A DNA stretch of 32,155 bases, from NCBI GenBank assembly GCA_023379725.1, contig JAMCPC010000121.1, positions 1-32,155 on the forward strand, written 5' to 3'. Within the stretch, counting starts at the first letter, position 1, and each line of letters starts with the position of its first letter. The notes beneath the pieces were generated by a model. That model had not been told where the DNA came from and ran no database searches. It was given only the letters and a program-made list of their open reading frames with translations. The stretch comes from Actinomycetota bacterium. Lineage in GTDB: Bacteria; Actinomycetota; Acidimicrobiia; Acidimicrobiales; JAMCPL01. The translations under genes and the position numbers were made by a program. Shown in pieces: positions 1 through 32,155 of the stretch.

Positions 1-497
1 CTTACCATACCATCTACACTTGAGATGGTCATGCCTGTCAACAACTCTGCCTCAGGGATGTTTGGCGTCAGGATATATGTATATGGCACCAGTAGCTCTC
101 GATACGCCTCTATACCTTCCTCGCTTACCAGCAGATTTCCCGACGATGCCGCAAGCACGGGATCAACTACTACATTTGGCAATTCTCCGGCTTTTATCCG
201 AGACGCAATAGTTGCAACGTTCTCTGCTGTGGCAAGCATACCCACCTTGGTGGCTCTAACCGGTGATCCTGCCACCGCAAGGTCTATCTGTAGACCTAGA
301 AGATCTTTCGGCACAGGCATTATTCCTGCTACTGTGGTAGAATCTTGTGCGGTTACTGCAGTGACTGCATATACACCGCGTACTCCAATTGATTCCAGGG
401 TGCGTATATCGGCCTGCATCCCTGCCCCTCCACTGGAATCTGATCCGGAGATTACAAGGACACCACCAGGGGCGTCATTCGACTGATGAGAACCCAT
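1..497 (-). CDS. thiD: hydroxymethylpyrimidine/phosphomethylpyrimidine kinase ThiD, N-terminal part; the gene runs off the window start
   Basis: Absent from the ORF track because it is open-ended. My minus-strand translation from the ATG (complement of 495-497) reads MGSHQSNDAPGGVLVISGSDSSGGAGMQADIRTLESIGVRGVYAVTAVTAQDS..., the ThiD N-terminal signature. It lies 28 nt downstream of the thiG stop on the same strand. Confidence 0.85.
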   Translation of the reverse strand, partial: MGSHQSNDAPGGVLVISGSDSSGGAGMQADIRTLESIGVRGVYAVTAVTAQDSTTVAGIMPVPKDLLGLQIDLAVAGSPVRATKVGMLATAENVATIASRIKAGELPNVVVDPVLAASSGNLLVSEEGIEAYRELLVPYTYILTPNIPEAELLTGMTISSVDGMV

Positions 498-522
498 GGC
501 TATTTACGGGACGAGCCACTAG
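466..522 (+). repeat. Partial copy E (right-hand ~57 nt) of the interspersed element, spanning the thiG stop / thiD start junction
   Basis: CCAGGGGCGTCATTCGACTGATGAGAACCCATGGCTATTTACGGGACGAGCCACTAG aligns without gaps to the right arm of copy C (reverse complement) at 44 of 57 positions, including the blocks CCAGGGGCGTCAT and AACCCATGG. Confidence 0.75.
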
Positions 523-525
523 GTG

Positions 526-1338
526 TCATTCGGCTGAGGAAAACCCACGGCCATTTGCAAGACCGTCCGTCAGGTCGGCCATACCTTCCATAGATGAGGA
601 TGCAAGTGCCCTGAATCGTCTTGGTATCCTTCCAGCCAGATACGCATCGTGTCCAGCTATAATAGCATTTTTCATTGCAGATGCCATCATTGGAGGGTTC
701 TGTGCCCTTGTAATTGCAGAGGCCACTAGCACTCCAGAGCAACCCAATTCCATTGCCTGTGCAGCCTCTGATGCAGTACCAATACCGGCATCAAGTATTA
801 CCGGCACATTCACGGTGTCGACTATCAAAGCAATATTGTGCGGATTGCGGATTCCAAGGCCACTGCCTATCGGAGCTCCCAGCGGCATAACGGCGACGCA
901 ACCTACCTGTTCAAGACGTTTGGCAACTATGGGGTCGTCGGTAGTATATGGAAACACCTTGAAACCCTTGTCGTATAGGATTTCTGCCGCTCTCAACAGT
1001 TCGTTTACATCCGGTAATAGGGTATCTTCATCTCCTATTACCTCCAACTTCACGTAATCTGTTTCGAGTGCATCCCTGGCCATTTCAGCTGTAAACACTG
1101 CTTCGTGAGCATTGTAGCAACCTGCAGTGTTTGGAAGGACAGTGACGTTATGCTCTTCGAGTACATCCAATATCGATCTTCCTGATGCAACCGATACACG
1201 TCGCATTGCAACTGTCGCCACTGAAGCCTCTGATGCCTGTATGACTCTTTCCAGCACTTCATGGCTCTGCACTCCGCCTGTGCCGAGCAGCAGTCGGTGA
1301 GTTATTTTCAGACCCGCAATATCGACATTCTCTTCCAT
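526..1338 (-). CDS. thiG: thiazole synthase ThiG
   Basis: 270-aa ORF with a typical ThiG sequence (LLLGTGG..., [14 protein letters not shown]). Its start overlaps the thiS stop (TAATG). Confidence 0.95.
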
Positions 1339-2945: not shown

Positions 2946-5900
2946 TTGGATGACGATTGGAACGTTAAAATGAATCCTGCCTGTAAAAGCAGTAATCGCC
3001 GCGTACTCGCTGTGAGCACTGAACAAAACACTACCAGCCTTTATAACCCTGCCTTTGAGCATGATTCATGCGGGATAGCTCTTATAGCTGATATCCACGG
3101 CAACAAGAGCCATGGCATAGTGGAGGATGCGTTGATCGCCCTTCAAAATCTGGCACATCGTGGTGCGACTGGAGCTGAAGAGGAGACTGGCGATGGCGCT
3201 GGGATACTGCTTCAAATGCCTCACGATTTTCTAAAATCACAGACAGAGCTGGGTATAGAAGAAATAGGGGAGGGTAAATATGCCTGTGGTATCGTGTTTA
3301 TGCCCAGGGATGACGATTCGGTACAGAAGTCGATGAGGCGCATAGAAGAATTGGCTAGAGAAGAATCCCTGAAGGTACTTGGTTGGCGCCAAGTACCTGT
3401 GAATGATACATCCATTGGTACCACTGCTGCCGAGGCTATATGCTCATTTTGGCAGGTGGCGGTGGCTCCAACTGCGCCAGTCGACCATGGTGATTTGCAA
3501 GACGGGCCACCAGTGGCCCGTCTTGCAAATAGCGTGACGTTATCCGGCAAGTCAGGGGCATCATCTGGCAAGGCCGAAGACGAAGGCGTAGCCGGTAGCT
3601 ACGTTGAGGATGAGAACGCCGTCAGGGGTGCCATCTGGCCGGCGGGAACCCATGGTGATTTGCGAGACGGGCCACTAGCTATCGATAGAATGGCGTTTTG
3701 CTTAAGAAAACGGGTAGAGCATGAGTTGGATAGTGTCTACGTAGCTTCATTGTCAAGCAGGACAATAGTGTACAAGGGTATGCTGACCTCCCATCAGCTC
3801 TCGTCGTTCTATCCTGACCTATCGGAACCATCCCTTAAGTCAGCTATTGCGATGGTCCATTCCAGGTTCTCCACCAATACCTTTCCATCATGGCCACTTG
3901 CGCATCCCTACAGATATATTGCCCACAACGGCGAGATAAACACTCTGATCAGCAATCGTAATTGGATGCGTGCCAGAGAAGCACTACTCGACTCAGACAT
4001 AATCCAGGGAGATCTGTCCAGGCTCTTTCCTATATGTACCCCCGGTGCATCCGATTCAGCCTCTTTTGATGAGGTAATAGAGCTGCTGCACCTTGGCGGT
4101 AGGTCGTTGCCTCATGCAATACTTATGATGATCCCTGAGGCGTGGGAGAAAAACACAGATATGGATCCACGTATGAGGGATTTCTATATGTACCATGCAT
4201 CCATAATGGAACCATGGGACGGGCCAGCAGCCATGATCTTCACTGATGGCATCATTGCCGGAGGAGTACTGGACAGAAACGGTTTTAGACCATCGCGTTG
4301 GCTTCTCACGAAGGGCGGAAAACTGGTACTTGGCTCTGAGACTGGACTACTGGATATAAATCCAGTAGACATAGTCAGAAAGGGGCGGCTACAGCCGGGG
4401 AAGATGTTCCTTATAGATACATCACAGGGACGTATAATAGAGGATACAGAGATCAAGAGCGCACTAGCATCAGAGCATCCTTACGGTCAATGGTTACAGG
4501 AACAGCAGGTACATCTAAGCGATATGCCATACCGAAAGATGCTGACTCCTCAGCACTCTTCGGTGGTCACACATCAGCGCCTTTTCGGATATACCAATGA
4601 GGATCTAAAGGTAATTATCGGCCCTATGGCCATGGGAGGCCAAGAAGCAGTAGGATCCATGGGCAACGACGCGGCTATTGCAGTATTATCAACGCGCCCC
4701 AGGCTCCTGTATGACTACTTTACCCAGCTATTTGCTCAAGTCACCAACCCGCCACTCGACGCAATAAGGGAAGAACTTGTCACATCCACAAGGACTCAGA
4801 TAGGGTCCGAGGGAAATTTGCTCGATCCTCAACCAGTCTCATGTAAGCAGATTATTCTTGAATATCCAATCATAGACAACGAAGAGCTTGCCAAGTTAAT
4901 GTACGTAAACGAGCATGGAGAGACACCTGGATTCAAAGCATTTACCGTTGACGGGTTGTTCGATTCCTCGGGAGGTGCAAATGCCCTAAGAGATGCTATC
5001 GAATCAGTGCGTTCAAAGGTAAGTGATGCTATTGCGAATGGAGCCAACATAATCATACTCTCAGACCGCAACGCCAGCGCTGAACTAGCTCCTATCCCGA
5101 TGTTGTTGCTTGTCTCTGCCATCCATGAGCACCTGGTGAGAGAGCGCACCAGGACAAAGGTTGGGTTAATCGCTGAGAGTGGTGAGGCCAGAGAGGTTCA
5201 CCATATGGCTCTATTGGTGGCCTATGGAGCATCAGCTATCAACCCCTACCTTGCCTTTGAAACAGTAGATGATATGGTTGCCAGCGGTTTGTTGGAGGAC
5301 ATTTCTGCACTTGAGGCTCGTCGGCACTACATCAAAGCCTGCACAAAGGGGATAGTAAAGGTAATGTCTAAGATGGGTATATCCACAGTGGCATCCTATA
5401 TCGGTTCGCATGTATTTGAAGCCATCGGTCTGGACAGGGATTTCGTGGATGAATACTTTAGTGGTACTACTAGTAGGATAGGCGGCGTAGGGCTCAAAGT
5501 TGTCACAGAGGAGGTATTGAAGCGCCATCGCAGAGCATTCAGCCGGTTGCAGTCGGTACGGGCTCATCGCGAACTAGAGACCGGAGGAGAGTATCAGTGG
5601 CGTCGCGAAGGAGAGGCACACCTGCTGGCCCCAAAGGTAGTATTCAAGGTACAGCAGGCCGTAAGGAACCGCGATTATTCATTGTTCAAGGAATATACCG
5701 ATCTCGTCGATGAGCAATCTGAGCAACTTTGTACATTGAGGGGTATGATGCACTTCAAGAAAGGGGTGAATTCGCCCATTTCCCTGAGCGAGGTGGAATC
5801 GGTATCCAGCATTGTTAAGCGTTTTTCAACCGGTGCCATGTCGTATGGATCGATATCGAAAGAAGCCCATGAGACACTCGCCATTGCAATGAACAGGCTG

Positions 5901-8021
5901 GGTGGAAGGTCGAATACCGGTGAAGGAGGAGAGGACCCCGATAGATTTACAGTAGATCCGAATGGGGATTCTCGGCGTAGTGCCATTAAGCAGGTTGCCT
6001 CGGGACGTTTTGGTGTAACTATAGAATACCTGGTCAATTCAGACGACATACAGATCAAGATCTCCCAGGGAGCCAAACCAGGAGAGGGTGGTCAGTTGCC
6101 GCCGCATAAGGTGTACCCCTGGATAGCGCGTACCAGATATTCTACACCGGGAGTAGGACTTATCTCGCCCCCACCGCACCATGATATTTACTCAATAGAG
6201 GATATTGCTCAGCTCATACACGACCTAAAGTGCTCTAACCCCAATGCTCGCGTACATGTAAAGCTGGTTGCTGAGGTAGGTGTAGGTACTGTAGCGGCAG
6301 GGGTTGCCAAAGCGAAATCAGATGTAGTACTCATATCTGGACATGACGGTGGCACCGGTGCCGCGCCGCTTACCTCTATCAAGCATGCAGGCGTTCCCTG
6401 GGAGATGGGGTTGGCCGAGACAAACCAGGTACTGGTAGCAAACGGCCTACGTGATCGTATAGTCGTTCAGGTGGACGGCCAATTAAAGACCGGCCGTGAC
6501 GTGGTGATCGGAGCGTTACTTGGGGCTGAGGAGTTTGGTTTTGCCACTATGGCTCTGGTTGCACTCGGCTGCGTCATGATGAGAGTATGCCATCTTGACA
6601 CCTGTCCGGTAGGCATCGCCACCCAGAATCCCGTACTGCGTAATCGTTTTACAGGAAAGCCGGATTACGTAGAGGCATTCTTTGAGATGATCGCCGAAGA
6701 GGTACGAGAGTACCTCGCTGAGCTGGGATTGAGATCGTTGGAGGATGCTATAGGCCGGGTGGATCTGCTTGATGTGGAACCTGCCGTAGAGCACTGGAAG
6801 GCACGCGGCCTGGATCTTTCTCCCATACTTACCTTGCCTGCAAATAATTACGGGACTGAACGTTTTCAGTGCGCCGCTCAGAACCATGGAATCGACTCGC
6901 AGTTGGACTGGGAGTTTATTGATGAGTGCATAGCAGGGATTGAGCAGGGCCATCCGGTGGCAGTCGAACTTCCCATAAGAAACGTCCACAGAACTGTAGG
7001 GACACTGCTAAGTCATACCATCGTTTCACGCTTCGGTGCAGGAGGTTCCGGTGGTAGTGACGGTGGTGGTAGTGACAGTGATGGGGGTGCTGGTGGTATG
7101 GATGCTGCTGGTGGTGGTAGTGACGGCGGTAGCGGTAGTAGCAGTGGTGCAGGGGGTACGGGGAGTGCAGGTAATCTACCCAATGACTTTATTGCTATAA
7201 AATTAAACGGTTCCGCTGGACAGAGTTTTGGAGCATTCCTGACGAAGGGAGTGACCCTCCAGCTGGTCGGTGATGCCAATGATTACCTGGGCAAGGGGCT
7301 GTCAGGTGGCAGAATCATTGTAGTGCCTCCACCAGAATCACTGTTCGCTGCTGAGGAACAGATTATCGCGGGTAATGTAATACTCTATGGAGCCACCAGT
7401 GGCGAATTATTCCTGAGAGGGCAAGCCGGTGAAAGATTCTGCGTAAGGAATTCCGGTGCTATTGCGGTTGCGGAGGGAATAGGCGACCACGGATGTGAGT
7501 ACATGACTGGTGGTATAGCTGTTGTATTAGGACCAGTAGGTAGAAACTTTGCTGCCGGCATGTCTGGTGGAGTTGCCTATCTCTATATTGGAGATCTTGA
7601 AAAAACTCCTTGGGAAAATCCAGGTAGTACGGTAACTCAGAGTGATAAGAGTAATATAGCCAATACAGCCAATATGGTCCAGGAGGTTCATGGATCTGGT
7701 GGCGGAGAGGGTATTGTTGAGTACGATATAACTCAATATCAAGTCGCTCAACTATATATTGCCAAGCATATCAATACAGAGATGGTAGACGTGATTGCGC
7801 TTGATGAGGAGGACATCGAATTATTGAGAGACCTGTTGACCAGATATCGTAGTGAGACTGGATCGACAGTTGCCACAACCATATTACACGACTTCAATAG
7901 AGTCTCGAGTCTGTTCTTGAAGGTCATGCCACGAGATTATGCAAAAATTATACAGATTACGAAATTGGCTGAAGCTGAAGGGAGATCGGTAGACGATGCA
8001 GTTATGGAGGCTACGCGATGA
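2946..8021 (+). CDS. gltB: glutamate synthase large subunit GltB, carrying in-frame insertions
   Basis: 1691-aa ORF. It has the Ntn amidotransferase N-terminus ([20 protein letters not shown]), the FMN/Fe-S domain and the C-terminal GXGXG domain ([18 protein letters not shown]). Alternative ATG start at 2970. Confidence 0.97.
3485..3678 (+). mobile_element. Copy A of the ~169-bp TIR-flanked interspersed element (3511-3678), preceded by a 26-bp duplicate of its own right end (3485-3510). It lies entirely inside gltB and is in frame.
   Basis: Aligns end to end with copies B, C and D. CCATGGTGATTTGCRAGACGGGCCAC occurs at 3485-3510 and 3650-3675, exactly 165 bp (55 codons) apart. The gltB frame stays open. 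Confidence 0.9.
7035..7172 (+). repeat. Imperfect GGTGGTAGTGAC-type tandem repeats encoding a Gly/Ser/Asp-rich tract inside GltB
   Basis: Translation is [46 protein letters not shown]. The DNA shows repeated ggtggtagtgac units. Confidence 0.85.
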
Positions 8022-8041
8022 TGAAGGTTGTTAGGTAAACA

Positions 8042-9562
8042 ATGGGCAAGATAACAGGATTTCTCGAATATGCAAGGCAGTTGCCTGCCAGAAGGCCAGT
8101 CGAAAAGAGAACGCACGATTGGAATGAAGTATACGAGCCCTTTCCTGAGGATATGGCCAGGGCACAAGCGGCCAGATGCATGGACTGTGGTATTCCATTC
8201 TGCCACCTTGGATGTCCTTTGGGAAACCTGATTCCGGAATGGAATGACCTTGTCTACAGGGGACATTGGCGAGAAGCGTCGGAGCGCCTTCATGCTACAA
8301 ACAACTTTCCGGAATTCACCGGTAGGCTGTGTCCTGCGCCCTGTGAGGCAGCCTGTGTACTTGGTATAGCTGATGATCCAGTAACAATTGAACGCATGGA
8401 ATACGAGATAGTGGAGACCGCATGGTCAAATGGTTGGATAGTTCCCATACCGCCTGAAGTCGAATCGGGTAAATCTGTGGCTATCGTAGGATCCGGCCCA
8501 TCTGGGCTGGCATGCGCACAGCAACTGAGACGAGCAGGGCATAGAGTAACCGTATACGAGAGGGATGGCAGACCGGGGGGGCTATTGCGTTACGGTATAC
8601 CGGAATTCAAGATGGAAAAGCGCTTTTTGGACAGGCGTCTGGAACAGCTTCGAGCGGAAGGCATCGAGTTTGTATGCGACACCTATGTAGGAGTGGATGC
8701 AGATACACCCGATAAGACTTACTATGGTTGGGATGCTACAAGGAAGAATCGTGTCTCAGCAAAAGAGTTGCTCGATAGTCATAATGCCCTTGTGTTGGCG
8801 ATAGGAACCGGCCTCTCCAGAAATCTTGATATTCCAGGGCGCGGTCTTGATGGTATTCACTATGCACTCGAGTATCTGAGGCCATCAAACTTGCTGCGTG
8901 AAGGCGTGCAATGTGAAACATTCATATCAGCGGAAGACCGAGATGTCGTGATACTCGGTGGAGGTGATACAGGTGCCGATTGCCTGGGCACAGTCCACCG
9001 TCAGGGTGCCAAGTCGGTTCTTCAGCTGGAAATTCTGCCAAAGCCACCGTTGTCCAGACCAATGGATCAACCGTGGCCTACCTATCCGATGATCTTTCGT
9101 ACTACGTCGGCCCACGAAGAGGGAGGGGAGCGTTATTATTCCTTGAATACTAAAGAGTTCATAGGTGACGAAAATGGTCATTTGAATGGGATGATCGTGG
9201 AGGAAGTGTCAATGGAATACCAAGATGGACGTCCAGTATTTAATAGTATTGATGAGACTGGGCAAACCCTCAAGTGCAACCTGGCGTTATTGGCGCTCGG
9301 GTTTGTTGGCCCCGAGCAATCTGGTGTAGCCGCTGAATTGAAAGTAGAGTTTAATGCCAGAGGCAACATTATTGTAGACAGCAATTGGATGACTACCACT
9401 GAAGGGGTGTTTTCATGTGGAGATGCAGCCAGGGGTCAGTCGCTGATTGTGTGGGCAATAGCAGAGGGCAGGTCGGCAGCTGAATCTGTCGATGCTTTTT
9501 TGGTTGGCAGACAGAGCTTCTTGCCTGCTCCAGTAAAGCCTGGTGAAGTGAGTATAAGGTAG
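8042..9562 (+). CDS. gltD: glutamate synthase small subunit GltD (NAD(P)H-dependent)
   Basis: 506-aa ORF with Cys clusters (CMDCGIPFC; CPAPCEAAC) and the dinucleotide fold VAIVGSGPSGLACA, directly downstream of gltB. Confidence 0.97.
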   Translation: MGKITGFLEYARQLPARRPVEKRTHDWNEVYEPFPEDMARAQAARCMDCGIPFCHLGCPLGNLIPEWNDLVYRGHWREASERLHATNNFPEFTGRLCPAPCEAACVLGIADDPVTIERMEYEIVETAWSNGWIVPIPPEVESGKSVAIVGSGPSGLACAQQLRRAGHRVTVYERDGRPGGLLRYGIPEFKMEKRFLDRRLEQLRAEGIEFVCDTYVGVDADTPDKTYYGWDATRKNRVSAKELLDSHNALVLAIGTGLSRNLDIPGRGLDGIHYALEYLRPSNLLREGVQCETFISAEDRDVVILGGGDTGADCLGTVHRQGAKSVLQLEILPKPPLSRPMDQPWPTYPMIFRTTSAHEEGGERYYSLNTKEFIGDENGHLNGMIVEEVSMEYQDGRPVFNSIDETGQTLKCNLALLALGFVGPEQSGVAAELKVEFNARGNIIVDSNWMTTTEGVFSCGDAARGQSLIVWAIAEGRSAAESVDAFLVGRQSFLPAPVKPGEVSIR

Positions 9563-9927
9563 TTCGCAAATCAATACCTAGGTAATTGGTATTGAACTGC
9601 CCACAGCTCGGGGAAAGCGGTTACATCCGCCGTGATGGTGCAGGTAAGAGGTTCTCGCATTGTCGATTATGTGCGCAATCCAACAAAAACACCAATCAAC
9701 CAGACAAAGGTAACTTGTTCCATGCCCCCCGGGCAACCCCCCCGGCAACCCAACCGGGAACTTCCGGCGAGAGCTACCAATCAACCATATAAAAGTCACT
9801 TGTTGTATACGCCACGCTCTGAACAGGTAATATGCTTCAACCATAACCCTCAAGTGCAGGTTTAGGGTTTTAATATCTGCTTTTATTGTCATAAAATTGT
9901 GTATTAGCGTTACGTTATAAAAATAGC

Positions 9928-10007
9928 ATATATGCATAATAATGTAGTATATTGCTGCTAATATTTCTCATGATATGGCAAATATGCATAAATGAATATA
10001 TGCATAT
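9928..10007. promoter_or_regulatory. Three copies of the palindromic core TATGCATA in an AT-rich region upstream of the MerR-like gene; candidate operator or promoter region
   Basis: TATGCATA lies at 9931-9938, 9983-9990 and 9999-10006, embedded in ATATATGCATA-type contexts. The surrounding ~260 bp is much more AT-rich than the rest of the window. Confidence 0.3.
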
Positions 10008-10131
10008 TTGTTAAATGCCTGTTCAGTGCGCAAATTACTATTATGTGACTTTCAACCATTAGTAGATGTATAGTCACAAAGATATGTACAGTAATGTAAA
10101 AAATTAAACTACCAAGAGGGAGGTTACGGCT

Positions 10132-10770
10132 ATGAAGAAGAGCAAGACCGCAATGCCGGGAAATGCGATTATAGATGATGTCATCCAGCTGGACGGTACT
10201 TTGGATGGTACAGATATTGACAGTACTGGCAGCATTACGGACGATACTGCTACTGACGATAATGCTCAGGATAACCAATATATCAGTGACGACTCTGGTG
10301 TGACGTTGGAAGGTTTTAGAGGTCCCCAGGTCTGTAAACTCATCGGCATATCCTACCGTCAGCTTGATTATTGGGCCAGAACTGGCCTATTGACTCCCTC
10401 AGTGGTGCAGGCATCGGGAAGCGGTACACAAAGAATCTATTCATACAATGATGTACTGGAATTGAAAGTTCTAAAGCGCCTACTTGATTCAGGGGTGTCG
10501 CTCAGAAGCGCCCGTAAGGCTGTTGACTGCTTGCGTGATGAGGTAGGAGGTGAACTTGGCTCTTCTACGTTGGTATTTGCCGGTGGTCGCTCCATTCTCG
10601 CTCATTCCAACGATGAAGTGATTGACCTCCTCCGCAACGGTCAGGGCGTTTTTAGTATGGTTGCACTTCAGGATATAGTAAGCGAACTGGATACAGATAT
10701 CACGACACTATCTGGTAGGTCTGGATCCGGCGAGAGCACTTCAAAAACCCCTTTGGACCACGCCATATAA
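10132..10770 (+). CDS. MerR-family transcriptional regulator with an acidic Asp/Thr-rich N-terminal tail
   Basis: The helix-turn-helix segment VCKLIGISYRQLDYWARTGLL...QRIYSYNDVLELKVLKRLLDSGVSL is typical of MerR/HspR-like regulators. A strong GGGAGG lies about 8 nt upstream of the ATG. Confidence 0.8.
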   Translation: MKKSKTAMPGNAIIDDVIQLDGTLDGTDIDSTGSITDDTATDDNAQDNQYISDDSGVTLEGFRGPQVCKLIGISYRQLDYWARTGLLTPSVVQASGSGTQRIYSYNDVLELKVLKRLLDSGVSLRSARKAVDCLRDEVGGELGSSTLVFAGGRSILAHSNDEVIDLLRNGQGVFSMVALQDIVSELDTDITTLSGRSGSGESTSKTPLDHAI

Positions 10771-10824
10771 AATCATCTTGTATAAGACAGGGTCACGGAA
10801 AACTATGTACAAACTATTCCACGC

Positions 10825-10854
10825 ACACCACATTGTATGAGCTACACCACATTG
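10825..10854 (+). promoter_or_regulatory. Perfect 11-bp direct repeat ACACCACATTG x2 upstream of gcvT; candidate regulator binding sites
   Basis: Copies at 10825-10835 and 10844-10854 (19-bp period), ending 22 nt upstream of the gcvT TTG start. Confidence 0.3.
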
Positions 10855-10875
10855 AATTACCGCACGTGAACCATA

Positions 10876-12027
10876 TTGTCTAAACTTACCGATCAGCCGC
10901 GTCGTCCAATCCTTTACGATCTTCATAGGTCTATCGGTGCCAAATTTACTGTATTTGGTGGATGGGAGATGCCTTTGCGCTATCCCGGCGGCACTATAGA
11001 TGAGCACATGTCTTGTAGAAATGCCTGTGCAATTTTTGACACTAGCCATCTCGGTTCACTCCTTGTAGAGGGTGGTGGTGCATTCGATATGTTACAGAAA
11101 GAGCTGACGAATGATTTAGGAAAGATATCTCCGGGACGGGCTCAGTATACGCATCTGGTGACTCCCTCTGATGGATCTGTCCAGGACGATTTGATAATAT
11201 GGTGGCTTGAGCCCGACAGGTTCATGGTGCTGGCCAACGCAGCAAATACTCAGTTGGTAGCAGATACTCTGCATGCTGAAGATATCACTTCATCAAGAGC
11301 GCTACTAGCCGTTCAAGGTCCTAATACACGTAAGGTACTATCCATGATATACCCGGAACTGTCGACCATAAAGAGCAATCAAGTACGTGTAATAACTATC
11401 GATGGAGCTTCCTGTACTGCAGCGGGAACAGGATATACCGGAGAAGACGGCATAGAGATTGAGGTACCGGCCGCACATGCCGATTCACTGTTCAGCCGCA
11501 TTTTGGACGCTGGTGCCACTCCTGCTGGACTGGGTGCCAGAGATACCTTACGCCTGGAAGCTGGGTTACCGTTATTTGGTCATGAATTAGGTCCAGGTAT
11601 ATCTCCGTTGCAGGCAGGACTCGATTGGGTGGTCGGCTGGCAGAAAAAGTCATTCAGGGGCAAGGTAGCATTGGAGAAGGAGAGGGAATCCGGCCCTGGG
11701 CGTATACTTTGGGGGTTGATCGGCGAGAATCGTAGACCACTGCGGGATAACTCCTATCTATATATTCCATCCGACGAGGAGCATGGAGAACGTGGAGGGC
11801 ATGAGAGGCATGGAGAGCATACACAACAGAGTGGTGACCATGATCCAATTGGAAGGATTACCAGTGGGGGATATGGCCCGACAGTAGGCAGAGGAATAGC
11901 TATGGCGCTAATATCCACTGACGTGGAAGCATATCCGGATATGATTATCGACGCAGTGCATGACGATAGAACAGTACCCGTTCGGCTAAGCAAATTGCCA
12001 TTTGTACCTCGAAGTAGAACTCGATAA
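10876..12027 (+). CDS. gcvT: glycine cleavage system aminomethyltransferase GcvT, with a His-rich insertion
   Basis: 383-aa ORF: LYDLHRSIGAKFTVFGGWEMPLRY..., TGYTGEDGIEIEV, GLGARDTLRLEAGLPLFGHEL. TTG start. Confidence 0.93.
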   Translation: MSKLTDQPRRPILYDLHRSIGAKFTVFGGWEMPLRYPGGTIDEHMSCRNACAIFDTSHLGSLLVEGGGAFDMLQKELTNDLGKISPGRAQYTHLVTPSDGSVQDDLIIWWLEPDRFMVLANAANTQLVADTLHAEDITSSRALLAVQGPNTRKVLSMIYPELSTIKSNQVRVITIDGASCTAAGTGYTGEDGIEIEVPAAHADSLFSRILDAGATPAGLGARDTLRLEAGLPLFGHELGPGISPLQAGLDWVVGWQKKSFRGKVALEKERESGPGRILWGLIGENRRPLRDNSYLYIPSDEEHGERGGHERHGEHTQQSGDHDPIGRITSGGYGPTVGRGIAMALISTDVEAYPDMIIDAVHDDRTVPVRLSKLPFVPRSRTR

Positions 12028-12262
12028 TCTACTACTTATGGCACCTTATTTACACCGCCGCAACGTCTATCACTATGAGTTATCCTGGCCATCAAACATA
12101 TTGCAACTCTTGCATATTTCATATTTTTATACCTTCAAAACACGCTTCGTTGCAAAGGCTAGGATGATGGGCAATATGACTGAACAGGAAGCATAAGACA
12201 TAGACTTTTATTATGAATAGAACGACGAGAGCAAACGGAACAACGAACAAGAACAACGAACT

Positions 12263-15393: not shown

Positions 15394-15559
15394 CTAGTGT
15401 AGCGTCCCGCAAATAACCATGGTTCCCACCAGCTAAATGAGCCCCTGACGGTGTTTTCATCCTCAACGTAGCTACCGGCTACGCCTTCGTCTTCGGCCTT
15501 GTCAGACAACACCATAACTTGCCGGATAGTGTCACGCTATTTGCGGGACACTACACTAG
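15394..15559 (-). mobile_element. Copy B of the interspersed element (166 bp, three 1-nt deletions relative to C/D), between convergent gcvPB and the histidine kinase
   Basis: Full-length alignment to copies A, C and D, with TIRs CTAGTGTAGCGTCCCGCAAATA / TATTTGCGGGACACTACACTAG. It overlaps the 3' end of the kinase CDS (15537-15559). Confidence 0.9.
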
Positions 15560-18004: not shown

Positions 18005-18173
18005 CTAGTGTAGTGTCTCGCAAATAACCATGGGTTCCCGCCAGCCAGATGACGCCCCTGGCGGCGTTCTCGTCCTCAACGTAGCTTCCGGCTACGCCTT
18101 CGTCCTCGGCCTTGCCAGATGACGCCCCTGACTTGCCGGATAACGTCACGCTATTTACGAGACACTACACTAG
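18005..18173 (-). mobile_element. Copy C of the interspersed element (169 bp) in the divergent intergenic region between the response regulator and der
   Basis: TIRs CTAGTGTAGTGTCTCGCAAATA / TATTTACGAGACACTACACTAG. There is an internal 17-nt direct repeat GCCAGATGACGCCCCTG x2 and a central hairpin CGTAGC-TTCCG-GCTACG. Nearly identical to copy D. Confidence 0.93.
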
Positions 18174-20272: not shown

Positions 20273-21796
20273 GTGGCTAGTTCTCATAGACGTCATCGTA
20301 ACCTGCACCCATCTGTGCTGTACGCACGGATTGCCGCGCAGCTACGCAATTCAATAGCTGCCCTGCTCGATCAGAGCCAACCTTTTGGTAGGCTCGCTCT
20401 GGTACAGGTATTCTCCATTGCAGGTGATGCCATGGTGACTATCTCGCTGGCAGGCTCGCTATTCTTCTCTATCTCTCCGAACGCGGCCAAGGGCAAGATA
20501 ATTCTTTACCTGCTTGTGACTATGGCACCTTTTGCCATTGTAGCTCCGGTACTCGGTCCGCTCGTAGATCGTTCAACCAGTGCTCGCAGGGCAATTGTAG
20601 CAATCTCTACAGGTGGAAGAGCATTTCTCTGCCTGCTCATGGCCAGCGACCTGCACAGCCTGGCATTATTCCCAGAAGCATTCAGCATACTGGTTCTGTC
20701 ACGACTTTACATGGTAACCAAATCTACCCTTGTTCCCGTGCTTACCTCTGACGAATACACCGCCTCTGACCGAGGCTCTATATCCACTTCCGGACAAGGA
20801 CTCGCTACCGATAGATATACCGCCTCCAGTCAAGACCGAGTAGACGATCCTTCCCCGATAAATAAACGGGGAGAGCCTGGATATCATGAAGGTCTTGCTA
20901 CTCGCAACGCTCAGCTCTCACTACTTGCCTCATTGGCTGGCACGGTAGGTACAACCCTGGCTGTAGGTATATTAAAGGGCGTAGGAGCCTCCTGGGTCCT
21001 AAGGGTAGACATATTAATCTACGCTTCAGGCATGGTAGCTGGACTTAGACTGCCGCGTTACATCGGCAAAATACTACCAAGGCAACATCAATCTGATACT
21101 CATGTATATGAAGCCTCTCACAATGAGGCATCCAATGAGGATAACTATCGAGATAAATGGTCTCACGAGAGTACAGAGCAAGTCAACGCTGCTCGCCAAT
21201 CGCTGTGGATGAAGGCGTTCGTCGATCCTGAAGTACTACTTGGCCTGAACGTGATGTCGATCCTAAGAGCACTGGTCGGCTTCTTTGTATTCTTGATAGC
21301 GTTTGGCCTACGCAGGGAGCATGCTTCGATGTTCTGGTACGGTTATGTACTTATAGCTTCGGGAGCCGGATCGTTGATCGGCATCCTGCTGGTACCGCGA
21401 CTTAGAAAGCGAATAAGTGAGCAATCATTGCTCACTGCAGCCGTATGGCTGGTGATGATAGGTGCCGGAATTACTGCTTCTTTTGGGAATGTCGTAGCTC
21501 AGGGCATACTGGCGTTCACGCTTGGCTTGGGGTCATCAGGGGCTCAGCCTGCATTTGATGCTATTGTACAGAGGCTGGTACCGGCAGTTCAGCAGGGGAG
21601 AGCATTTGCAAGATTTCAGACAAGGCTTCAGCTGAGCTGGGTGCTTGGTAGCCTGATATCTGTGATGGTTGCCATCCCATTTGTCTCGGGGAACATTATT
21701 GTAGCTGCTGTGGCAGGTGTAACTGGACTTTTTTACTTGGCAGGTAGATACAGCAGCGGCCAACGAGCGAACAGTGGCGGCTACGGTGGAAGATAG
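20273..21796 (+). CDS. polytopic membrane protein, MFS-like, with a long hydrophilic central loop
   Basis: 507 aa with multiple hydrophobic segments and an MFS-like loop GPLVDRSTSARRA. GTG start. Confidence 0.6.
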   Translation: MASSHRRHRNLHPSVLYARIAAQLRNSIAALLDQSQPFGRLALVQVFSIAGDAMVTISLAGSLFFSISPNAAKGKIILYLLVTMAPFAIVAPVLGPLVDRSTSARRAIVAISTGGRAFLCLLMASDLHSLALFPEAFSILVLSRLYMVTKSTLVPVLTSDEYTASDRGSISTSGQGLATDRYTASSQDRVDDPSPINKRGEPGYHEGLATRNAQLSLLASLAGTVGTTLAVGILKGVGASWVLRVDILIYASGMVAGLRLPRYIGKILPRQHQSDTHVYEASHNEASNEDNYRDKWSHESTEQVNAARQSLWMKAFVDPEVLLGLNVMSILRALVGFFVFLIAFGLRREHASMFWYGYVLIASGAGSLIGILLVPRLRKRISEQSLLTAAVWLVMIGAGITASFGNVVAQGILAFTLGLGSSGAQPAFDAIVQRLVPAVQQGRAFARFQTRLQLSWVLGSLISVMVAIPFVSGNIIVAAVAGVTGLFYLAGRYSSGQRANSGGYGGR

Positions 21797-24978: not shown

Positions 24979-25035
24979 CTTGCCTTATTCCCGAGCACTG
25001 GATAATGTAATGCTATTTACGAGATACTAGACTGG
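24979..25035 (-). repeat. Degenerate partial copy (one arm) of the interspersed element, 13 nt upstream of the HAD gene start
   Basis: 25000-25035 (GGATAATGTAATGCTATTTACGAGATACTAGACTGG) matches the copy C end GGATAACGTCACGCTATTTACGAGACACTACACTAG at 30 of 36 positions without gaps. Weaker similarity extends back to CTTGCC at 24979. Confidence 0.6.
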
Positions 25036-25048
25036 TGTAGAAATAGAT

Positions 25049-30124: not shown

Positions 30125-31897
30125 ATGTCCACCACATACCCCGCTGAATCGGCTAAGTTCAATAGCATGGTAGATGAGCACAGACCCCATTCCCACCATA
30201 CGAAATTTATATTCTTCACAGGAGGGGTGTCATCATCGCTTGGAAAAGGGTTGACTGCGTCATCGCTTGGCAGGCTCTTGAAGAGCAGGGGGATGAAGGT
30301 TACTATGATCAAGCTGGACCCCTACATAAATGTAGATCCTGGTACGATGAATCCCTTTGAGCATGGGGAGGTGTTCGTTACAGAAGACGGTGGTGAGACC
30401 GACCTTGATTTGGGTCATTACGAAAGATTTATCGATGAAAATCTACACAGGGATTCGAACGCGACTACCGGGTCGATATACCTCTCCATTATTGCTGCAG
30501 AGAGAAGAGGAGATTACCTGGGACGAACCGTTCAGGTCATACCTCACGTCACCGATGAGATAAAGTCCCGAATAATGAGCGTAGCCACCGAAGATACTGA
30601 TGTGGTCATAGTAGAGGTAGGTGGCACTGTCGGTGACATAGAGATCGTACCTTTTTTGGAGGCTCTCAGACAGATGCGCAGTGACGTAGGGCGAGACAAC
30701 GTATGTTATGTGCATCTAACGCTGGTTCCATACCTTGCTCCTTCAGGTGAACAAAAGACCAAGCCCACCCAGCACTCTGTAACAGAACTACGCAGTCGTG
30801 GTATACAGCCAGATATAATAGTCTGCCGTTCCGACCAGCCGATATCATCAAACCTCAAAAGAAAGATATCGCTCTTGTGCGATGTGCCTATTGACGCAGT
30901 TATATCAGCTGTAGACGCACCCAGCATATACCTTATACCACTTGTTCTACACGACGAAGGAATGGATGCTGTGGTCATGAAGATACTCCACATTGATCTA
31001 GCCGATCATCCTATCGATCTCGCTGGCTGGGCACGTGTCGCCTCAATGGCAACGGACACAAGCAGATCAGTCAGTATAGGAATTGTTGGTAAATACGTGA
31101 ACCTCCCTGATGCATACCTGTCGGTCGTCGAAGCTGTCCGGCATGGTGGTTTTGCTCTCGATACACATGTAGACATCTCATGGATCCAGGCCGAAGAGAT
31201 TCCACAGCTGATAGAGGATGGAACAATATCGCAACTCGATGGCATTATCATACCTGGTGGATTTGGTGAGCGTGGTGTAGAAGGCAAGATATCGACAGCT
31301 ACATATGCCAGGTTGCACAATATCCCCATTCTGGGCATATGTCTGGGATTACAGGTAATGGTTATTGATGTTGCCCGCAATATCGTTGGCCTGAAAGGCG
31401 CCAATTCACGTGAGATGGACCCTTATACACCATATCCAGTTATAGATTTGATGGATGAGCAACGCAACGTGGTAGACAAGGGTGGTACTATGCGCTTGGG
31501 GTCTTACGTAGCTCAGCTGAAGCCGGACAGCCTGGCGGCAGAGGTATACGGTACAGAGGTTGTGTCAGAACGCCACCGACATCGCTACGAGGTAAACCCA
31601 AAATATCGTACCAAATTAGAGGATGCAGGTCTTTCGTGTAGTGCCATTTCGCCTGATGGCAGGTTGGTGGAGATGGTAGAGTTGCCAACTCATCCATACT
31701 TCATTGGTACGCAGGCTCACCCAGAATTCAAAAGTAGGCCGGATCGTCCTCATCCATTATTCAAAGGTCTGGTAGAGGCTGCACTTGCCAGGGCAGAGAG
31801 CAGGCAACCCAGAATCGTAGATGTAGAGGATGACTGGAATGCATTACCTCCCTTAAAGGCTAGAGAGATCAAGGAGCTCTCTGAAAGTAATTTGTGA
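30125..31897 (+). CDS. pyrG: CTP synthase
   Basis: [21 protein letters not shown], the glutaminase domain with GICLGLQ, and HRHRYEVN. Confidence 0.97.
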
Positions 31898-32155
31898 GTC
31901 TAGTGCAGTGCTTCGTAAATAGCGTGACGTTATCCGGCAAGTCAGGGGCGTCATCTGGCAAGGCCGAGGACGAAGGCGTAGCCGGAAGCTACGTTGAGGA
32001 CGAGAACGCCGTCAGGGGTGTCATCTGCCTGGCGGGAACCCATGGTTATTTGCGAGACACTACACTAAGTTTTGATCTCCTTCCCACGGCTGAACTTGGA
32101 CACTGCTCAAGTCGAGCACTGCCGTACGGTGGATATGGTAAGTTCGTAGAATTAC
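31894..32155 (+). CDS. Open reading frame running through copy D and off the window end. By synteny it may be the N-terminus of the gene downstream of pyrG (a NUDIX hydrolase in mycobacteria). Start unresolved (GTG 31894, GTG 31903 or TTG 32050).
   Basis: My translation: [87 protein letters not shown]... with no stop before the window end. The other two plus-strand frames after the element hit stops. Confidence 0.3.
31900..32069 (+). mobile_element. Copy D of the interspersed element (170 bp), starting 2 nt after the pyrG stop codon
   Basis: Full-length alignment to A, B and C. Left end CTAGTGCAGTGCTTCGTAAATA, right end TATTTGCGAGACACTACACTAAG. Confidence 0.93.

Follow-up and report, generated by a model that had tools for sequence, protein, structure and literature searches.

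The DNA analysed here is a 32,155-nt stretch of contig JAMCPC010000121.1 from an Actinomycetota bacterium (hereafter the window; G+C = 49%), in which a palindromic repeat of the MITE type (miniature inverted-repeat transposable element) lies in frame within gltB, the gene for the large subunit of NADPH-glutamate synthase (GOGAT). The gene is intact and runs on the forward strand from a TTG at 2946 or an ATG at 2970 to 8021, giving 1691 or 1683 codons. It is followed, 20 nt downstream on the same strand, by gltD for the small subunit (8042-9562), and this gltBD operon context is kept in all related loci as judged by synteny and Pfam. GltB scored 1612 bits against NCBIfam NF008730 (cut-off 1047) and matched the GOGAT large chains in PDB. 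Its expected domains, its N-terminal catalytic Cys in a conserved 12-residue motif and the adjacent gltD all identify it as the large subunit, and the locus tables listed all four Pfam domains (GATase_2, central, Glu_synthase/FMN and GXGXG) for the orthologous loci. A preliminary description of this DNA, drawn from the letters of the window, had reported an open reading frame (ORF) of 1691 codons; indeed, the frame is open from 2946 to 8021 and its translation is exactly as quoted there.

The insert consists of two element-derived parts on the forward strand. R1, a solitary 26-nt copy of the right end of the element (CCATGGTGATTTGCAAGACGGGCCAC; 3485-3510), was detected by repeat search and encodes HGDLQDGP. 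It is followed by a junction dinucleotide at 3511-3512, which is CA in the window and TA in the 98.6%-identical allele L008 according to the allele alignment, and which we read as the TA of a CTAG site. Next comes E2, a full 163-nt copy of the MITE (3513-3675; nhmmer 186 bits over the whole model), whose ends form a left inverted repeat (GTGGCCCGTCTTGCAAATA; 3513-3531) and a right inverted repeat (3657-3675), the remaining right end starting at 3650. E2 is flanked on the right by a TA at 3676-3677 within CAC-TA-G, a putative target-site duplication, and C-TA...TA-G flanks are also present at other copies. The segment 3510-3678 represents a full copy of a repeat dispersed in the window, with 90-96% identity to three others; the repeat search assigned 3520-3686 to this family, and E2 itself is 90-95% identical to other copies. 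The direct repeat 3485-3513/3650-3678 has 93% identity at a spacing of 165. The distance of 165 bp (55 codons) previously given for the duplicated 26-mers (3485-3510 and 3650-3675) was therefore recovered by the repeat search, with one mismatch between them (GCAAGAC vs GCGAGAC). RNA folding predicted a single long hairpin for E2 (-94 kcal/mol, z = -5.3), and the copy at 31897-32069 gave z = -3.3.

Six-frame translation of the gltB copy revealed one open frame, which is the gltB register. In canonical copies this register meets a TAG within the left inverted repeat (GTG TAG TGT), where the gltB copy has GTG GCC CGT. AlphaFold2 modelling of the N-terminal 491 residues from a 33-sequence alignment yielded a predicted template modelling score (pTM) of 0.83. 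Residues 155-213, which cover R1 and E2, were modelled without secondary structure at a predicted local distance difference test (pLDDT) score of 31-34, between a strand (140-148) and a helix (215-233) that both have pLDDT above 90. Pfam analysis of the 68-residue insert detected no family and no Hint/intein domain. The insert is thus predicted to be disordered within a length-variable loop of the amidotransferase domain. A surface loop, raised as a possibility in the preliminary description, would be compatible with the modelled disorder (pLDDT ~32) between folded flanks and with the variability of the loop.

Comparison with orthologues defined the extent of the insertion. Relative to the solved structures from B. 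subtilis (7MFM), Synechocystis (1LLW) and Azospirillum (6S6S/1EA0), the window GltB has ~59-62 extra residues at the insert, with query residues 169 and 234 aligning with residues 147 and 153 of 7MFM. Close relatives were recovered with full-length GltB as query; the N-terminal 491-residue query gave only short partial proteins. The closest relative, P0121 (1683 residues, 98% identity), belongs to a cluster of 50 sequences and is followed by P0122 (86%) and P0123 (81%); many Acidimicrobiales GltB proteins share 60-69% protein identity. P0122, encoded on contigs L001-L003 (92% DNA identity), is without the insert, and the difference from the window at this site is exactly 165 nt, or 55 codons. 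The insertion of about 55-64 residues proposed earlier is therefore borne out by both comparisons, and the empty site sought by orthologue alignment was found, since L001-L003 carry one 26-mer followed by the flank (CCATGGTGATTTGCGGGATGGGCCAC-TA-GCT). The native segment between FWQVAV and RKR had been put at about 10 residues, which is too short: it measures about 20-25 residues in Acidimicrobiales orthologues, with a baseline loop of about 24. The equivalent of R1 is the sole element-like sequence in the insert-free orthologue. The 29-mer of this empty allele agrees with other copies' right ends at 22-24 of 29 positions, a likeness that is not due to chance.

The related alleles form a series at this site. 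L001 reads ...GGGCCAC-TA-GCT, L008 (98.6% identical) reads ...AGGCCAC-TA-[163 nt]-TA-GCT, and L009 and L010 (98.4% identical) have the structure of L008 minus 114 nt inside the element, in frame. For the 90%-identity cluster, 15 members were listed; eight have the full insert and four the short form (...HGDL(R/Q)D(G/R)...), and these come from ENA, NCBI and JGI records. Between the window and L008, ~3.6% of the sites of the insert differ, including three amino-acid changes, vs 1.4% over the whole gene. The three separate changes in length observed here (+165, -114 and a different loop of +99 nt in L004) are each divisible by three. Moreover, loop lengths at the insert point differ widely among more distant orthologues, which indicates that the site tolerates insertions and deletions. 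The longer loop of L004/L005 (CGEVGMYEAREDDGLEAGMQREARGG...) was considered as an old copy of the element and rejected, as local alignment of peptide and DNA was no better than with shuffled sequences and nhmmer gave no match; this loop is simply variable.

No stop codon was present in gltB of any allele compared, the ORF being open over 1683 codons in each strain. The ratio of nonsynonymous to synonymous divergence (dN/dS) of the window gltB was 0.21-0.27 against same-species strains, 0.14 against L001 and 0.075 against L004. These data show that gltB is under purifying selection. The recurrent alleles, the purifying selection and the lack of stops together make misassembly and a pseudogene very unlikely. 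The central claim of the preliminary description, that the repeat is inserted in frame in an intact gltB, within the part encoding the amidotransferase domain, and is presumably translated, is supported by the empty allele, the recurrence in independent assemblies, the in-frame insertions and deletions, the low dN/dS and the position in a variable loop with predicted disorder. Because of the disorder prediction, the in-frame partial deletion in some strains and the absence from the sister species, the insert is most likely a tolerated and dispensable 55-residue surface excursion rather than a functional module.

Two further variable regions were observed in GltB. A Gly/Ser/Asp-rich low-complexity stretch with imperfect tandem repeats of the GGTGGTAGTGAC type lies at residues ~1366-1425 in alignment numbering (window 7040-7170), in the C-terminal part of the protein before the GXGXG-region match. 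Its length varies between 98%-identity strains (+20 residues in L010, -5 in L009), and L001 and L004 have a wholly different sequence there. Another insertion, also lineage-specific and ~23-40 residues long, is located near window 7690-7870.

A phmmer search with the 55-residue element peptide against 1.84 billion representative proteins returned 21 matches. About 19 of these are ORFs of 41-146 residues, apparently called on intergenic copies. In-frame insertion in a larger gene was found among the matches for two genes, gltB and that of P0263, a 2033-residue multi-domain glycosyltransferase from a flagellin-glycosylation locus in which the element peptide occupies residues 1468-1517. DNA alignment placed the MITE at 10390-10558 of L131/L132, within the gene at 6001-12102, in the same orientation and frame as the gltB copy. 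The orthologues P0276 and P0277 (92% and 87% identity) are without exactly 55 residues at this site. The empty site (L141 near 7590) has CCCAGTG directly followed by ATCGAAG, and the filled site reads CCCAGTG-CAGTGTCTCG...CACTGCACTAGCG-AGCGAAG. In this copy CAG replaces TAG, and the right arm is altered in complementary fashion. The host sequence immediately to the left of the insert looks like an element end in both in-frame cases.

The element family, which the preliminary description had not named, can be assigned from the ends of the copies. Their alignment gave a consensus of ~170 nt bounded by inverted repeats (CTAGTGTAGTGTCTCGTAAATA...TATTTGCGAGACACTACACTAG). The 21-nt end sequence (TAGTGTAGTGTCTCGYAAATA) shared by the copies at 18005-18173 and in L006 and L007 occurs at >120 metagenome loci, and C precedes 120 of 122 such ends, which places them in CTAG. 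When at least 1.1 kb of inward sequence was available, 52 of 60 ends led into an open frame of at least 250 codons. A complete 1162-bp element with both ends was found at 337-1498 of L028; its 361-residue ORF matches the IS630-family transposase model NF033545 (279 bits, cut-off 100) and contains Pfam DDE_3 and HTH domains. Since its ends are shared with IS630 elements and it is flanked by TA/CTAG, the repeat is, on this sequence evidence, an IS630-derived MITE. The 11 distinct full copies have the ends C-TA-GTG...CAC-TA-G, with single-base departures in some. As in other MITEs, the 163-nt element has no transposase capacity, its sole 55-codon open frame being without a Pfam match; four full copies and remnants lie in the 32-kb window, and copies vary in presence between close relatives. 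More copies were found in L006, L007, L131, L133, L134 and L136. No Rfam family was detected at gathering thresholds anywhere in the window, hence none for the element. Among 185,579 representative genomes, the element core was found in one metagenome-assembled genome (MAG) only, Actinomycetota FK_Sedi_A_Bin.79, as two contig-end matches, and by this search the element appears to be lineage-restricted.

Across the 11 distinct full copies the inverted-repeat arms co-vary, with 93% of cells paired. Cells changed on both arms numbered 23, vs 10.5 +/- 2.2 in shuffles (none of 500 shuffles reached 23). Divergence between copies was 0.36-0.42 in the outer 11 nt of each arm vs 0.085 in the interior; the interior is 91-95% conserved, and the outer ~11 nt (alignment columns 5-15 and 155-165) are complementary within each copy, as in the arm pairs GTGGCCCGTCTTG/CGAGACGGGCCAC, GTGGTCTGTCTCG/CGAGACAGACCAC and GTGCAGTGTCTCG/CGAGACACTGCAC. 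The variability of the termini is partly due to ascertainment, in that four copies came from the peptide search and were thus preselected for loss of the left-arm TAG; the mirrored changes in the right arm are free of this bias. Candidate explanations for the co-variation are template-switch correction of quasi-palindromes, selection for the hairpin, or subfamilies of ends. Correction of quasi-palindromes by template switching, reportedly described by Ripley and by Lovett, would explain the mirrored arm changes and is no more than a candidate here. We also considered that the ends of E2 had necessarily been converted from R1, an idea weakened by the young copy in L136 with similar ends (GTGGCCCATCCCG).

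IS630-family elements insert at TA with duplication of the TA (PMC2170065), and IS630 is described as preferring CTAG (Tenzen and Ohtsubo 1991, as cited in PMC2170065). Taken as a whole, the locus is probably explained by an IS630-derived MITE that lies in frame in a functional gltB, in a tolerated loop and beside an older remnant. The family would move by cut-and-paste into TA, preferably in CTAG, with TA duplication. As the first base of the element is G and its last is C, CTAG would be restored at both ends on each insertion, and a second insertion next to an older copy or remnant would accordingly be expected, as seen in the L134 tandem and the remnants at 450-573. In gltB, an older copy would first have left its 26-29-nt right-end remnant, R1, ending in CAC-TA-G and still standing alone in the sister lineage. 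The younger 163-nt E2 would then have entered that TA after the lineage split, giving R1-TA-E2-TA. With an addition of exactly 165 nt, in the sole stop-free frame and orientation and in a naturally variable loop, the gene would have stayed functional and the copy would have been retained. The insert is most likely translated, and the protein would thereby have gained a 55-residue disordered excursion between the FWQVAVAP strand and the following helix, and 38 of the insert codons have already been lost in some same-species strains. Insertion of E2 after the split is favoured because its interior differs by only ~5-9% from other copies, synonymous divergence (dS) between the window and L001 gltB is 0.34, and no full copy occurs in L001-L003. 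The sequence of events, transposase-driven mobilisation within this genome, and the translation and neutrality of the insert are what we infer.

Several observations weigh against this account. The exact breakpoint in gltB is ambiguous owing to the 26-nt direct repeat, and the empty-site junction of the glycosyltransferase has no TA, so that the canonical TA duplication is not demonstrated there. Neither the window nor the ~300 kb of related contigs surveyed yielded an IS630 transposase gene. At its ends (GTGGCCC.../...GGGCCAC), E2 shows the R1 variant and differs from most young copies, which a simple model of a new insertion beside a remnant does not predict. The two 26-mers (R1 and R2) are altered in concert in L009, both reading GCGGGAC; this is conversion, and it blurs the dating. 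Furthermore, translation of the insert is presumed from the sequence, and a second copy of gltB may be present elsewhere in the genome. It is conceivable, if rather doubtful, that the termini of this MITE evolve in concert and that it homes to its own remnants, which would raise in-frame colonisation above chance. Loss of the left-arm stop by mutation (TAG to GCC or CAG) would then be copied to the right arm via template switching along the hairpin, and new copies may favour landing beside, or recombining with, sequences like their own ends. Such behaviour would fit both cases because gltB has a 26-nt end copy beside its insert and the glycosyltransferase has CCAGTG.

The alternatives differ mainly in what they make of the insert-free alleles and of the gene itself. 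L001-L003 might owe their state to secondary loss, the ancestor having had R1-E2 or a tandem pair from which 165 bp were deleted between the 26-nt repeats. Deletion between R1 and R2 yields exactly the L001 sequence, the two repeats demonstrably exchange sequence (L009), internal deletions of the element are known in L009 and L010, and tandem copies exist elsewhere (L134/P0260). However, the interior of E2 is only ~5-9% from other copies against a synonymous divergence of 0.34 from L001, and no full-length copy was found in 23 kb of L001 or in two sister contigs, including the site syntenic to 15394-15559, and we regard secondary loss as unlikely. Still less probable is that the gltB copy has been exapted, with selection acting on the loop or on an mRNA hairpin that might influence how GOGAT assembles or works, serve as an RNase III site or make translation pause. 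Although its presence in frame in many assemblies, the very stable hairpin (-94 kcal/mol, z = -5.3) and the co-varying arms would suit such a role, a 38-codon in-frame deletion exists in the same species at 98.4% identity, the sister species is without the insert, and the insert differs more than the gene between the window and L008 (~3.6%, with three amino-acid changes, vs 1.4%); moreover, the peptide is predicted to be disordered and has no Pfam family.

That gltB is an unexpressed or decaying pseudogene, or that the insert is removed by an intron, an intein or ribosomal bypass, is very improbable. The 26-mers could in principle serve as take-off and landing sites, and the other lineage-specific low-complexity insertions in gltB might be read as decay. 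However, all strains keep 1683 open codons with dN/dS of 0.07-0.27, every insertion or deletion at the site is in frame, Rfam detected neither an intron nor any other type of RNA in the window and Pfam no intein/Hint domain in the insert, and bypass is unneeded as no stop codon follows the first 26-mer. An assembly artefact, a chimeric join at the repeat during metagenome assembly, is barely credible. Copies of the repeat do break assemblies, and several lie at contig ends (L006, L007 and the end of L008), but identical junctions recur in independent ENA, NCBI and JGI assemblies, both flanks are continuous in-frame gltB, and a derived deletion allele of the same insertion exists.

Insertion of a MITE beside an older remnant in gltB can be compared with several known systems. 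Like Rickettsia palindromic elements (RPEs; Ogata et al. 2000, 2002, as summarised in PMC10969869), the element is a ~150-bp palindromic repeat with one open frame that lies in frame in unrelated housekeeping genes, the added peptide being apparently compatible with fold and function (PMC10969869). Unlike RPEs, which belong to Rickettsiales, it occurs in an Actinomycetota (Acidimicrobiales-like) host, its IS630-type ends and TA/CTAG flanks allow the parent transposon family to be identified, and there are two in-frame cases here vs dozens in Rickettsia, most copies here being intergenic. Given the IS630-type ends and the host phylum, membership of a described RPE family is unlikely, and the resemblance would be functional only. 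As in MITEs of the IS630/Tc1-mariner group and in IS630 and ISY100 (PMC2170065), the 21-nt ends are identical to those of elements encoding NF033545 transposases, the flanks are TA in CTAG, and the copies are small, numerous and without a transposase. In contrast to those MITEs, the outer 11 nt vary yet stay complementary, and the gltB and glycosyltransferase copies are coding.

ERIC, Coxiella QMITE1/2 and Anabaena MITEs are also MITE-type repeats occasionally found within ORFs, where they cause in-frame fusions or extensions (PMC10969869, PMC5896051, PMC2229807). A 2024 review calls in-frame fusions by intragenic MITEs 'not unusual', with ERIC, Coxiella QMITE, Anabaena MITEs and RPEs as examples (PMC10969869, PMC5896051). 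In functional genes of Coxiella, the cases are mostly short overlaps with gene ends, and insertions in the middle of ORFs affect hypothetical proteins (PMC5896051). The present copy differs from these: it sits midway through the catalytic amidotransferase domain of an enzyme at the core of nitrogen assimilation, and close relatives provide empty, full and partly deleted alleles. The preliminary description knew of no comparable case in an actinobacterial core enzyme. Our search of the available library likewise found no paper mentioning both Acidimicrobiia/Acidimicrobiales and MITEs, and a search combining glutamate synthase, palindromic elements and 'in-frame' returned nothing relevant. The claim of novelty is to be narrowed, given that in-frame MITE fusions have been called 'not unusual' (PMC10969869, PMC5896051): what is new is the phylum, the catalytic domain of a core enzyme and the allele series, and the principle was already known from Rickettsia and other bacteria.

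These results suggest that in-frame colonisation of core enzymes by palindromic repeats extends beyond Rickettsia and host-associated bacteria to free-living uncultured Actinomycetota. The allele series, with remnant only, full and partly deleted forms, would suit studies of how the GOGAT amidotransferase domain tolerates foreign sequence and of how MITE-derived peptides enter proteins. In addition, such inserts inflate protein lengths and spawn spurious small ORFs in MAG annotation.

The other copies in the window are intergenic and were found by repeat search. One lies on the reverse strand at 15394-15559, between the convergent genes for gcvP2 and a histidine kinase, as confirmed by alignment; all four strains of the species share it, and it was not detected in L001 or L004. 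Another, with canonical ends (CTAGTGTAGTGTCTCGTAAATA), is on the reverse strand at 18005-18173 between a response regulator gene and der/engA. Exact empty sites for these two copies were not found, the related loci being too diverged. The third is on the forward strand at 31899-32067, directly after the stop of pyrG (CTP synthase). Degenerate sequences are also present. Two tandem right-end fragments form a remnant between thiD and thiG (450-573, forward strand; repeat search and nhmmer), which has an orthologue in L001 at 5897-5967 and therefore points to an older wave of the family that predates the lineage split. A short left-end fragment (CCAGTCTAGTATCTCGTAAATAGCATTAC) remains on the reverse strand at 24998-25036, with msrB on one side and a HAD-hydrolase gene on the other. 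Between gcvP2 and the histidine kinase gene of L001 (~21260-21410), where the window has a MITE, we observed four to five tandem units of ~25 nt (GGGGGGTGATTGCTGGAAGCTAGTT), which are unrelated to the MITE. The rest of the window, in which no transposase gene was found, is ordinary housekeeping sequence: thiD/G/S/O, gltBD, merR, gcvT/P, a two-component system and der, together with MFS transporters, an ECF sigma/anti-sigma pair, msrB, a tlyA-like gene, nadK, recN and pyrG.

Copies on other contigs showed further arrangements. In L134 (10103-10334; P0260), a full copy is followed by a partial second one with the junction ...CAGGCCCC-TG-GGGGTCTATCC..., and the pair is read through by a called 146-residue ORF whose end meets the beginning of a type II/IV secretion ATPase gene. 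In L133, a full copy at 5053-5220 is located in a ribosomal-protein operon between rpsH (S8) and rplF (L6), covered by a called 82-residue ORF extending from immediately behind rpsH into the beginning of rplF; no gene was called at 15-1844 of this contig, though rplV and rpsC are expected there. In L136, a called element ORF lies between clpX and folC. Finally, eight of the metagenome loci with an IS630-type end (L027, L037, L063, L087, L091, L109, L117 and L124) share identical non-coding sequence inward of it (TAGTGTAGTGTCTCGTAAATAACTTTACATAACTATACTTACAAAACCAGGGG...), and L034 contains a 270-nt element bounded by both ends; these loci probably represent further MITE families that use the same inverted repeat in other organisms.

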